Source: Candidatus Micrarchaeia archaeon
GTDB taxonomy: Archaea; Micrarchaeota; Micrarchaeia; Burarchaeales; JACRGF01
Length of the DNA stretch: 27,554 bases
Assembly: GCA_038870455.1 (NCBI GenBank)
Contig: JAWCPB010000014.1
Coordinates: 1 to 27,554, forward strand
Direction: 5' to 3'
Position numbers and translations under genes: made by a program. A model generated the notes under the pieces. That model saw only the letters and a list, made by a program, of their open reading frames with translations. It was not told the DNA's origin and ran no database searches. Position 1 is the first letter of the stretch. Each line of letters opens with the position of its first letter. This document shows positions 3,523 to 14,464 of this stretch, in pieces.

Positions 3523-3705
3523 GCCCCTGTAGCTCAGTGGTAGAACCTTTTGCCGCGCGGCAGAAGCGTTTGCGGAAAAGTGTTCCGCGAAAGAGCGTGT
3601 GCATGGTAGAACCCTTTTTGCCTTTGGCAAAAAGCGTTGACGGAAGAACCGTCAACGGAAAAGCCATAGAGCACAAGGCCGCGAGTTCAATCCTCGCCAG
3701 GGGCT
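3523..3705 (+). tRNA. tRNA-Thr(GGT) with two introns: D-loop (about 3543-3590) and canonical 37/38 (3609-3669)
   Basis: Acceptor GCCCCTG/CAGGGGC, D-stem GCTC/GAGC, anticodon stem TGTGC/GCACA with GGT at 3605-3607, T-arm GCGAG-TTCAATC-CTCGC, discriminator T. A cloverleaf forms only after both insertions are removed. Confidence 0.9.
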
Positions 3706-7799: not shown

Positions 7800-7922
7800 A
7801 GCCCCAGGAGAGATTTGAACTCTCGACATCTCGCTTACAAGGCGAGCGCTCTTTCGCGGAACACTTTTCCGCAAACGCTTCTGCCGCGCGGCAAAAGGGT
7901 TCTACCGCTGAGCTACTGGGGC
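7800..7922 (-). tRNA. tRNA-Thr(TGT) with a D-loop intron (about 7854-7902)
   Basis: Reverse complement: GCCCCAG TA GCTC AGCGGTA[intron]..GAGC G CTCGC CT TGT AA GCGAG ATGTC GAGAG TTCAAAT CTCTC CTGGGGC T. Confidence 0.92.
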
Positions 7923-8163: not shown

Positions 8164-8262
8164 GACCTTCCCCTCTCGAGGAGGGTCAGGAGGAACCTGG
8201 AACTGGGGAGGGGCGCAGCCCCTCCGCGGTTCGGCCCACTGGGGTTCGGTCCGCGGTTCGGT
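8164..8262 (+). ncRNA. Putative structured non-coding RNA or long structured leader of tRNA-Leu
   Basis: Non-coding and GC-rich with several stems (GACCTTC/GAGGGTC; GGAGGGGC-GCA-GCCCCTCC; GAACTG/CGGTTC; GAACC/GGTTC). Begins about 23 nt after TTAATTAA at 8134-8141. Confidence 0.4.
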
Positions 8263-8349
8263 GCGGGGGTGCCGGAGCATGGTCAATCGGGCAGGGCTTA
8301 GGACCCTGTGCGCTTAGGCGCTGCAAGAGTTCAAATCTCTTCCCCCGCA
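8263..8349 (+). tRNA. tRNA-Leu(TAG), intronless
   Basis: Acceptor GCGGGGG/CCCCCGC, anticodon arm CAGGG-CT TAG GA-CCCTG, long variable arm, T-arm AAGAG-TTCAAAT-CTCTT, discriminator A. Confidence 0.95.
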
Positions 8350-8387
8350 TGCGACAGTATTTAAAACAGGAATTCGATTGGACAGCG

Positions 8388-12181: not shown

Positions 12182-12622
12182 ATGCGGCGTGCTGCTGAAA
12201 AGGGCGAGCGCGCGTTTGCTGACGAGGGCAGGCTCAAGAAGGCGCGCGTCGTTTTCGGCTCGCTGCTCGCTTTCATTGAAGAGCCCCCGCAGGAGGGCTG
12301 GGAGTCAAGGCGCGAGGTGGAGGCCGCGCTGAGGAAGCTCGCCCGCCTTGCACCAGCCTCGGTTGAGGTGGCCAAGGAACTCATCCGCTCGGGCGGGCCG
12401 CGCGAGCGCCTCGCCGCCTGTCACGCCCTCGGCGAGCTGCGCGCGCCCGCAGGCGTGGCCGCGCTCATTCTCGCGCTCGAGGATGAGAAGGAGTGGGTGA
12501 GGGTGTGCGCCGGCCGCGCGCTGCGCAAGATAGAGGACAAGGAGGGGCTCATCGCCGCGCTGCTCGCCAAGAACACCGAGCTGCTGGCGCGCCTCGCGGC
12601 CTCGCTCGAAGGCAAAGGATAG
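12182..12622 (+). CDS. HEAT (PBS-lyase-type) repeat protein
   Basis: ERLAACHALGEL...GVAALILALEDEKEWVRVCAGRALRKI repeats; 11 nt downstream of the giant gene. Exact start uncertain. Confidence 0.8.
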   Translation: MRRAAEKGERAFADEGRLKKARVVFGSLLAFIEEPPQEGWESRREVEAALRKLARLAPASVEVAKELIRSGGPRERLAACHALGELRAPAGVAALILALEDEKEWVRVCAGRALRKIEDKEGLIAALLAKNTELLARLAASLEGKG

Positions 12623-12694
12623 CGGGGAGTGGATTTGAACCACCGATCTCTGGGTTATGAGCCCAGCGGGCACTCCAGGCTACCCTACCCCGCT
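12620..12694 (-). tRNA. Initiator tRNA-Met(CAT)
   Basis: Reverse complement AGCGGGGTAGGGTAGCCTGGAGTGCCCGCTGGGCTCATAACCCAGAGATCGGTGGTTCAAATCCACTCCCCGCTA. A1-U72 pair and three consecutive G-C pairs in the anticodon stem. Confidence 0.95.
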
Positions 12695-14344: not shown

Positions 14345-14464
14345 GCCTAGGTAGCTCAGCCTGGTTAGAGCGCCAGACTCATATCGCACCGCGATCTGAG
14401 TGCCGAGCCTTCGGGCAATGACCGGGAAATCTGGAAGTCGCGAGTTCAAATCTCGCCCTAGGCA
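14345..14464 (+). tRNA. Elongator tRNA-Met(CAT) with a 45-nt intron at 37/38 (14384-14428)
   Basis: GCCTAGG/CCTAGGC acceptor, CCAGA-CT CAT A[intron]A-TCTGG, T-arm GCGAG-TTCAAAT-CTCGC. The GCC start and the intron favour elongator Met over Ile2. Confidence 0.9.

Follow-up and report, generated by a model that had tools for sequence, protein, structure and literature searches.

A short hairpin repeat lodged in tRNA-Thr introns of a Micrarchaeia genome and in arrays outside tRNA genes

The closest described parallels to the locus considered here are the transposing tRNA intron families of Thermoproteales (Fujishima et al. 2010), whose mechanism is given as unknown in the parts of PMC4090602 and bioRxiv 10.64898/2026.10.13.758758 that treat them, and the tRNA introns of Candidatus Micrarchaeum acidiphilum ARMAN-2, a small DPANN genome in which, according to passages of PMC3239211 and PMC3488258, many tRNAs are interrupted in the D-, anticodon and T-loops by introns with strict and relaxed splice motifs. 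The locus itself is a tRNA-Thr(GGU) gene on contig JAWCPB010000014.1 (C14 below; the window, 27,554 nt analysed as a whole) of a Candidatus Micrarchaeia archaeon (GCA_038870455.1; source genome G000, 1.04 Mb in 51 contigs, 60% G+C, 90% complete). The gene has one intron in the D-loop and one at position 37/38, and both contain a copy of a repeat of 36-39 nt, called the module below, which consists of AACCCTTTT, a variable hairpin and then AAAAGCGTTNNCGGAAAA. It is highly probable that the intron at 3609-3669 is an ordinary protein-spliced archaeal 37/38 intron whose first 38 nt are one copy of this module, and that the module is a repeat lodging where it does no harm.

As in the Thermoproteales families, to the extent that these sources cover them, similar introns are found here in different tRNA types and at different positions of one genome, and a bulge-helix-bulge motif is kept at each site. 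Unlike in those families, only the 36-39 nt core is common while the tails differ, the core also lives outside introns in intergenic arrays, and it is found across phyla together with a three-part mirror pattern; the host, too, is different, a Micrarchaeota-like DPANN archaeon with an epsilon2 endonuclease as opposed to a Thermoproteales crenarchaeon with an (alpha-beta)2 enzyme. If the repeated unit were the intron itself, it would be expected to stay confined to tRNA introns; what is found is that the core alone is common and that at least 15 of 50 copies lie in arrays. The phenomenon therefore works like the Thermoproteales intron families in an ARMAN-2-type host without being simply a member of them, the unit being a sub-intron module that also occurs outside introns and across phyla. 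Compared with ARMAN-2, the likeness is in the small DPANN genome and the many tRNAs interrupted at the same three loops with both kinds of motif; the main-text passages of PMC3239211 and PMC3488258, supplements aside, describe neither a common intron module nor copies outside tRNA genes. No description of the module was found in the literature searched, whose coverage excluded subscription papers (Fujishima 2010 among them) and supplements, and searches with sequence words returned unrelated papers only.

The exon borders of tRNA-Thr(GGU) could be fixed without recourse to a splice motif because five relatives (G022, G019, G003, G037 and G008) carry intron-less orthologues, uninterrupted genes of 72 nt with the D-loop AGTGGTA-GAGC and the anticodon loop ATGGTAA. 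The spliced gene has the same exon layout as these, and in three of the five (G022, G019 and G008) an aligning upstream coding sequence precedes the intron-less gene. In silico excision of 3542-3591 and 3609-3669 results in a 72-nt tRNA-Thr(ggt) that is accepted by ARAGORN, and the Rfam tRNA model gives 40.4 bits over the full span; excision of 7853-7903 from the second threonine gene of the window (table 1) likewise leaves an accepted 72-nt tRNA-Thr(tgt). GGTA joined straight to AGCACA is present in a DNA contig of another relative (run X1), and the RNA run gave a single 36-nt piece of less than 90% likeness, located within the upstream open reading frame. ARAGORN without intron search misses both genes alike, and the low number of tRNA genes recovered by standard tools in the source genome (just 15-24) is attributed to the module-bearing introns that interrupt them.

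Table 1. Positions of the two intron-bearing tRNA-Thr genes of the window, their introns and the module copies within them
Feature	Position	Strand	Description
tRNA-Thr(GGU) gene	3523..3705	+	183 nt; exons 3523-3541, 3592-3608, 3670-3705; mature 72 nt
D-loop intron of tRNA-Thr(GGU)	3542..3591	+	50 nt; between Sprinzl positions 20 and 21; predicted cut GGT↓A ... GAA↓A
Module copy in D-loop intron	3544..3579	+	AACCTTTT-GCCGCGCGGC-AGAAGCGTTTGCGGAAAA; model R1 30.7 bits, E 1.7e-5 genome-wide
37/38 intron of tRNA-Thr(GGU)	3609..3669	+	61 nt; canonical position; relaxed bulge-helix-bulge motif
Module copy in 37/38 intron	3610..3647	+	model R1 41.5 bits, E 1.5e-8 genome-wide; hairpin 3615-3622/3626-3633
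Second hairpin of 37/38 intron	3635..3657	+	perfect 9 bp CGTTGACGG-AAGAA-CCGTCAACG; arms 3635-3643/3649-3657
tRNA-Thr(UGU) gene	7800..7922	-	123 nt; one D-loop intron 7853-7903 (51 nt), module copy 7865-7901
Module copy in tRNA-Thr(UGU) D-loop intron	7865..7901	-	model R1 39.7 bits

An earlier, sequence-only reading of the window had given the sequence, the coordinates and both hairpins of the 61-nt intron as they stand here, and the pairing of CCAT with ATGG that it proposed is recovered in full: the central helix joins ATGG (3603-3606; exon bases 32-35) to CCAT (3664-3667) with 4 of 4 pairs and is present in the minimum-energy fold. The outer helix is the anticodon stem of 5 bp and the 3-nt bulge on the 3' side is AGA. 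An inner helix is missing; the first hairpin occupies the bases that would form it, and therefore the 5' cut lies in an open loop and the motif is relaxed. For the D-loop the same reading had paired CCGC with GTGG/GCGG, and this pairing does exist in the sequence but is one base off: with the usual cut positions its register leaves two surplus A's compared with the intron-less orthologues (GGTAGAGC), while the correct register, (A)GTG/(A)GCG with CGCG, forms 3 of 4 pairs and has the GAAC/GTTC helix adjoining. A bulge-helix-bulge scan of the D-loop intron of tRNA-Thr(GGU) gives AGTG/CGCG as the central helix (3 of 4 pairs), the D-stem GCTC/GAGC of 4 bp as the outer helix and GAAC/GTTC of at least 4 bp as the inner one, which in the fold is a 9-bp helix GAACCUUUU/AAAAG(U)GUUC. 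There are four sequence-equivalent registers for this intron, and GGT↓A ... GAA↓A alone suits both the motif and the orthologues, whose product GGTAGAGC it yields. The AGA repeat at the intron borders merely makes the register ambiguous, and no target-site duplication is seen there or at 37/38.

A typical intron copy of the module ends in ...GGAAAA-GGGTT-(4 nt complementary to the exon)-(2 nt), and its inverted ends AACCCTTTT/AAAAGGGTT pair as the inner splice helix. The variable tail has two partners, the start of its own intron (AACCC/GGGTT) and four exon bases upstream of the 5' cut, and therefore each tail appears tailored to its own exon, as had been suggested from the three window introns. 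In all 12 of the 12 resolved module introns the tail matches the local exon, with 3 or 4 of the 4 central positions paired, although the scan demanded at least 3 central pairs and the figure is partly circular, only the borders confirmed by orthologues (Thr and Cys) being free of circularity.

The genome encodes the enzymes that such introns require. EndA (387 aa) matches PDB 4fz2 (4fz2_A) over its full length with an E value of 3e-135, a further likeness to ARMAN-2, as 4FZ2 is the epsilon2 EndA of that organism, which cleaves strict and relaxed motifs according to passages of PMC3488258 and PMC3239211, and an RtcB ligase is encoded with a 477-bit match. For the 37/38 and the D-loop intron alike, removal gives a canonical tRNA, a bulge-helix-bulge motif is present, and the endonuclease and ligase of archaeal splicing are at hand; excision is predicted. 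The course of events would be as follows. The last bases of the 37/38 intron (CCAT followed by AG) would pair with exon bases 32-35 (AUGG), and this exon-intron pairing would form a relaxed bulge-helix-bulge motif together with the anticodon stem. The broad-specificity, ARMAN-2-like epsilon2-type endonuclease would cut the precursor at GGU↓A...GAA↓A and GGUA↓G...AG↓A, and RtcB would ligate the tRNA-Thr exons. The module would be a repeat, selfish or neutral, that is kept where splicing or a non-coding context spares the host, and would accumulate in tRNA (and rRNA) introns, always in sense, as well as in hairpin arrays between genes. Two peculiarities of the enzymes themselves were seen. A second EndA-like protein of 352 aa (L171:1468-2526(-), which is C2 of G000) matches solved endonucleases only in its C-terminal catalytic-type domain and is thus a paralogue next to the epsilon2 enzyme. 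RtcB at C16:7577-10399(-) of G000 is a single open frame of 1087 aa in which about 1.4 kb separate the matches to Pfam positions 1-74 and 47-426, and the frame looks like one with an intein or another in-frame insertion.

Within the 37/38 intron the 5' end reads GAACCCTTTTTGCC-TTT-GGCAAAAAGCGTT and the 3' end GGAAAAG-CCATAG, and the arms of the first hairpin are TTTTTGCC and GGCAAAAA. The second hairpin joins GCGTTGACGG, which is conserved in the module, to CCGTCAACGG further downstream, a sequence similar to the 3' portion of the module's GCGTCAACGG variant; the GCGTCAACGGAAAA variant is found at C12:21461, C32:7897 and C34:8038. In local alignment this intron scores 25 against the D-loop intron of tRNA-Thr(TGT), a score reached by 5 of 2000 dinucleotide shuffles (mean 14.1, SD 2.6), and 21 against the D-loop intron of its own gene, reached by 34 of 2000, and similarity above chance is thereby confirmed. 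A covariance model, R1, was built from 19 copies elsewhere in the genome and none from the window (alignment A2, an equal-length set), and it matches all three window introns, which bears out the claim that they are one repeated family and that a single tRNA carries it at two positions. Judged by sequence, the kinship of the window introns thus appears modest in pairwise alignment and decisive through the family model. The wider search that had been proposed for the family gives 53 sense matches in the whole genome (E <= 1.6e-4), all three window copies included, together with weaker antisense echoes of the same hairpins. Rfam gives only tRNA matches in the introns and places the module in no family; weak rows for MIR1446 and L10_leader are chance matches.

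The hairpin is maintained by changes on both strands. On alignment A4, which comprises 57 rows (40 distinct, with 4 antisense rows and 1 truncated) and was fitted to the model, so that it favours structure, 99.1% of cells are paired, 7 of 12 pairs are altered on both sides and none of 500 shuffles equals this. The outermost pair covaries too, from A-T to G-C in four GACCC...GCGTC copies. An earlier MAFFT alignment (A1) mis-registers the 5' arm of the module and was replaced by A2 and A4.

A regular-expression search for AACCCTTTT-hairpin-AAAGCGTTGACGGAAAA locates 50 copies in the genome. Thirty of the 50 are in genes recognisable as tRNAs, where they occupy D-, anticodon and T-loops, every one in the sense of the tRNA; the hosts are Thr (three genes), Ala, Cys, Val, Leu, Pro, Phe, Asp, Arg and other tRNAs. 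Composite arrays built from several types of hairpin repeat account for at least 15 more, and 5 are uncertain. The arrays inspected (on C18, C1 and C9) are all between protein-coding genes, and several others are at contig ends. Several single introns hold 2-3 tandem module units of 58-61 nt, the 39-nt cores of a tRNA-Val(CAC) and a tRNA-Pro(GGG) intron are identical, and on C15 a single tRNA has almost the same core in its D-loop intron as in its T-loop intron; double occupancy of one tRNA is therefore common in this genome. A CRISPR array was considered as the source of the matches with a period of about 60 nt and was rejected, the units being hairpin modules without unique spacers, and a coding reading was rejected on the ground that copy lengths differ by non-multiples of 3.

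Three window copies preceded by GGTA had led the sequence-only reading to another explanation: a mini-element targeting GGTA, or an intron reinserted by reverse splicing, would recently and independently have hit two D-loops and one anticodon loop, the splice helix being rebuilt each time. GGTA does precede all three window copies, a conserved core is joined to differing tails, other tRNAs have closely similar cores at different positions, and all intron copies are in sense, as an RNA route predicts. The targeting part fails, however, by the refuting condition which that reading had itself set, as 45 of the 50 copies have no upstream GGTA; of the five with GGTA within 6 nt, three are the window copies and two are further D-loop copies, and AACC is preceded by C in 35 of 50. 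GGTA is there because it belongs to the D-loop consensus G18-G19-U-A or arises from the GGU anticodon together with A37. Nor do the D-loop introns of the two threonine genes look like separate hits, since tRNA-Thr(UGU) and tRNA-Thr(GGU) show 96% identity over their 5' 75 nt and the module occupies the same D-loop place in the third isoacceptor, Thr(CGT) (C26/C28, also in G001); these introns are therefore paralogous, or have been homogenised by gene conversion. The claim of a recently re-tailored 37/38 intron meets a similar objection, as intron and CCAT tail are common to G025, where the module is followed by GCCATGA, and to G001, where a module-less 21-nt intron ends in GCCATAC. Intergenic copies antisense to their neighbour genes, and the lack of any reverse transcriptase (RVT_1) match in the 90%-complete genome, also argue against this explanation, which is very improbable.

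The history of the sites supports the reading of an ordinary intron with a module inside it. The 37/38 module of Thr(GGU) is also present in G025 (tail GGAAAGCCATGA) and G016, both of another family. G001, of the same genus as the source genome, has both Thr(GGU) introns at the same sites but hairpin-less, 29 and 21 nt in length, and at the region of the second hairpin of the 37/38 intron it keeps just CAACGAGAAGCCATAC, the end of its shorter intron. The 37/38 intron of tRNA-Cys(GCA) contains the module here, an unrelated 17 nt in G001 (where exon 1 is 100% identical) and a variant module in G002; in contrast, the tRNA-Val and tRNA-Ala introns are common to G001 at 99% and 91% identity. It is the core that turns over, while intron sites and splice tails stay in place, and the 37/38 insert is not a fresh re-insertion.

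Conservation of the module could also mean that it is a functional RNA part of the intron under selection, such as a platform for protein binding, an aid to the splicing fold or a stable circular RNA, and not a selfish element. In agreement with this, a segment beyond the hairpin of the model, GCGTTNNCGGAAAA, is conserved across phyla among the matches listed, the orientation in introns is strictly sense, and compensatory changes maintain the hairpin. On the other hand, the module is dispensable at orthologous sites, G001 lacking it in three introns and five relatives lacking the introns altogether; many copies are outside any RNA gene and in both orientations relative to open reading frames, single introns have amplified it in tandem, it matches no Rfam family, and its copy number in the genomes of one phylum lies anywhere between 0 and 43. 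A functional role of this kind is therefore quite improbable.

The module is not restricted to the source genome. Twenty-one of 151 genomes of the phylum have a match to the model, and with stricter filters the source genome has 43 copies, followed by genomes with 15, 12, 11 and 9. A scan for the exact pattern in one genome per prokaryotic species gives at least 117 stretches, nearly all of them in archaeal metagenome-assembled genomes: Methanophagales/ANME-1, Bathyarchaeia, Woesearchaeota, Aenigmatarchaeota, Micrarchaeota, Iainarchaeum, Altiarchaeota, Nitrosotalea, Thermoplasmata and others. Among the matches listed across archaea, the module is found in tRNA introns, in one 16S rRNA intron (L119) and behind the ends of open reading frames, in the last case 24 times in sense and 29 times in antisense, with 7 counted in both. 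A role as RNA terminator behind genes was rejected, since these ends are followed by the module in both orientations. The L119 copy (~2055(-)) is closed by AAAAAGGGTT and lies inside a GGGGCGCAGCAGGCGCGAAA region, which we take to be a conserved part of the 16S rRNA gene; it would be an rRNA intron of the same kind.

Across these archaea the bases following CGG-AAAA mirror the purine strand of the hairpin. They do so at 143 of 189 positions beyond the fixed AAAA (permutation mean 80.4, SD 7.8, with 0 of 2000 reaching 143) in a test of those 54 among 117 unique copies whose stems are longer than 4 bp, many of the ANME-1 copies being akin to one another. At least 7 distinct stems have matching tails, for example CTCTTTTT, CTTTCC, CTTTCTT and TCTT. 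The copies of the window hold only TTTT/AAAA/AAAA and one C-G-G column, and speak neither for nor against a triplex. An order of pyrimidine, purine and reverse-Hoogsteen strand defines the class II intrastrand triplex in the part of Holder et al. 2015 (PMC4666352) that deals with it, and the order of the module, pyrimidine, purine and mirror purine, is a signature of such a triple helix, the triplex itself being predicted. In this respect the module is like the class II PIT, BoxC and TMECO repeats of bacteria, which the same part of that paper presents with the three segments in this 5' to 3' order and as multi-copy, conserved and mostly non-coding. The archaeal module differs from these in its conserved 10-nt linker (GCGTTNNCGG), in a C-C mismatch and in its presence in spliced introns; no sequence relation to the bacterial repeats described there is evident, and they are likened by the order of segments. 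A related pattern was seen in the 37/38 intron of tRNA-Cys of G002 (L176, ~1535-1640), where TTTTCTTTCTTTTCGG / CCGAAAAGAAAGAAAA / AAAAGAAAGAAAAAAGG form a three-part pattern of 16 nt with a linker unlike that of the module.

How the module moves can be weighed on these data. REP and BIME mosaic repeats and MITEs of bacteria are short hairpin repeats that form intergenic mosaic arrays and vary strongly in copy number among relatives, and the module is like them in both respects; unlike REP and BIME, it is strongly associated with tRNA introns in sense, shows no target-site duplication and has no Y1/RAYT transposase match. Spread as DNA is somewhat favoured over the reverse-splicing route through RNA because of the intergenic arrays, the presence of both orientations outside genes, the tandem amplification, the triplex signature of DNA type and the missing reverse transcriptase match. 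The route through RNA, by which spliced products would reverse-splice into, or recombine with, the genome and the intergenic copies would be secondary, is kept alive by the sense-only introns and by the lack of a transposase match. It is also in keeping with the inverted ends AACCCTTTT/AAAAGGGTT, which build the inner splice helix of intron copies, and with the model discussed for the Thermoproteales families in the part of PMC4090602 concerned, but that part of the review itself supposes a process at the level of DNA. The composite arrays between protein genes are a further difficulty for it, and the mirror pattern suits a DNA triplex, since the purine motif does not form in RNA according to the part of Holder et al. 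(PMC4666352) concerned; spread at the RNA level is on balance unlikely.

A bolder form of the DNA route is a tentative one and rather doubtful as a whole. Here the module would be a pan-archaeal mobile DNA repeat which folds into a triplex as single-stranded DNA, enters by preference the exposed non-template strand of highly transcribed RNA genes, and survives there only where its inverted ends and a few local bases make a bulge-helix-bulge. If this were true, new tRNA and rRNA introns in DPANN and other archaea would come directly from the repeat, which would account both for intron copies being in sense only and for their tailored 3' ends.

Several points weigh against the favoured reading of a DNA repeat lodging in ordinary introns. 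The strictly sense orientation of the intron copies is unlike random insertion of DNA and could point to a role or a route at the RNA level, and no match to the Y1_Tnp transposase (PF01797) was found in the 90%-complete genome, in a search in which the controls were detected. For the Thr introns, gain here and loss in G001 are both compatible with the data, the D-loop intron of G001 looking like a decayed copy. Splicing and cut sites are predictions only, and both motifs are relaxed, the 37/38 one being without inner helix and the D-loop one having 3 of 4 central pairs. The 50 copies were sorted into tRNA and array copies by inspection of flanks and by resolved gene models, which left the 5 uncertain ones, and an automatic intron finder (motif scan with ARAGORN) resolved only 17 of 32 clusters, with some spurious solutions. 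Those at C1:14112, C8, C18 and C32:27-115 were spurious, and only solutions with a sensible tRNA type and flanks were kept. A cmscan of the 32 loci gave only 10 tRNA matches, insufficient for intron mapping, and a survey of orientation by T-loop motif was too insensitive, with no motif near most copies.

Further observations concern the surroundings of the repeat. Arrays in G000 are located at C18:7800-8270, C1:57290-57450(-), C9:30900-31300(-), C32:1-560(-) and C44:1-208; besides the module itself, they are built from a 44-nt G6/C6 hairpin (AGACAAAGGGGGGAAGTATCCCCCC...) and from an 83-nt long-stem unit bearing the module at its tip. Many arrays are at contig ends, and the C44 copies are antisense to the adjoining tRNA-Pro(TGG). 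At C11:9310-9560 two modules and a 44-nt hairpin unit come after the 5' half of a tRNA-Arg(CCG), and no 3' half can be seen for about 150 nt; the tRNA gene may be split or may contain a very long intron. A divergent module copy (AACCATTTT...) lies at C8:13008-13045 (+), 8 nt past the 3' end of a match to archaeal RNase P RNA and on the opposite strand. A second intron family, starting with CCGAACCGCG, is found at C1:20732-20767 and C32:7953-8034(-), in a T-loop intron and a tRNA-Asp 37/38 intron. The window also has a tRNA with anticodon CAT at 14345-14464 (+), whose 45-nt 37/38 intron is without the module, and the intron-less tRNA-Leu(TAG) at 8262-8350 and tRNA-Met(CAT) at 12620-12694(-).

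The origin of introns in archaeal tRNA genes is the question on which these observations bear. The 2026 census of Asgard tRNA introns gives no general route of arrival in its section 2.5 (bioRxiv 10.64898/2026.10.13.758758). With regard to intron gain, the intron cores considered here are a recognisable and countable repeat that also lives outside genes. This repeat turns over within one genus while the sites of introns and their splice tails stay, and it is found across phyla; it therefore becomes testable whether such a repeat is a vehicle of intron gain or a lodger in existing introns, whether it moves as DNA or as RNA, and whether its triple helix is a real one.

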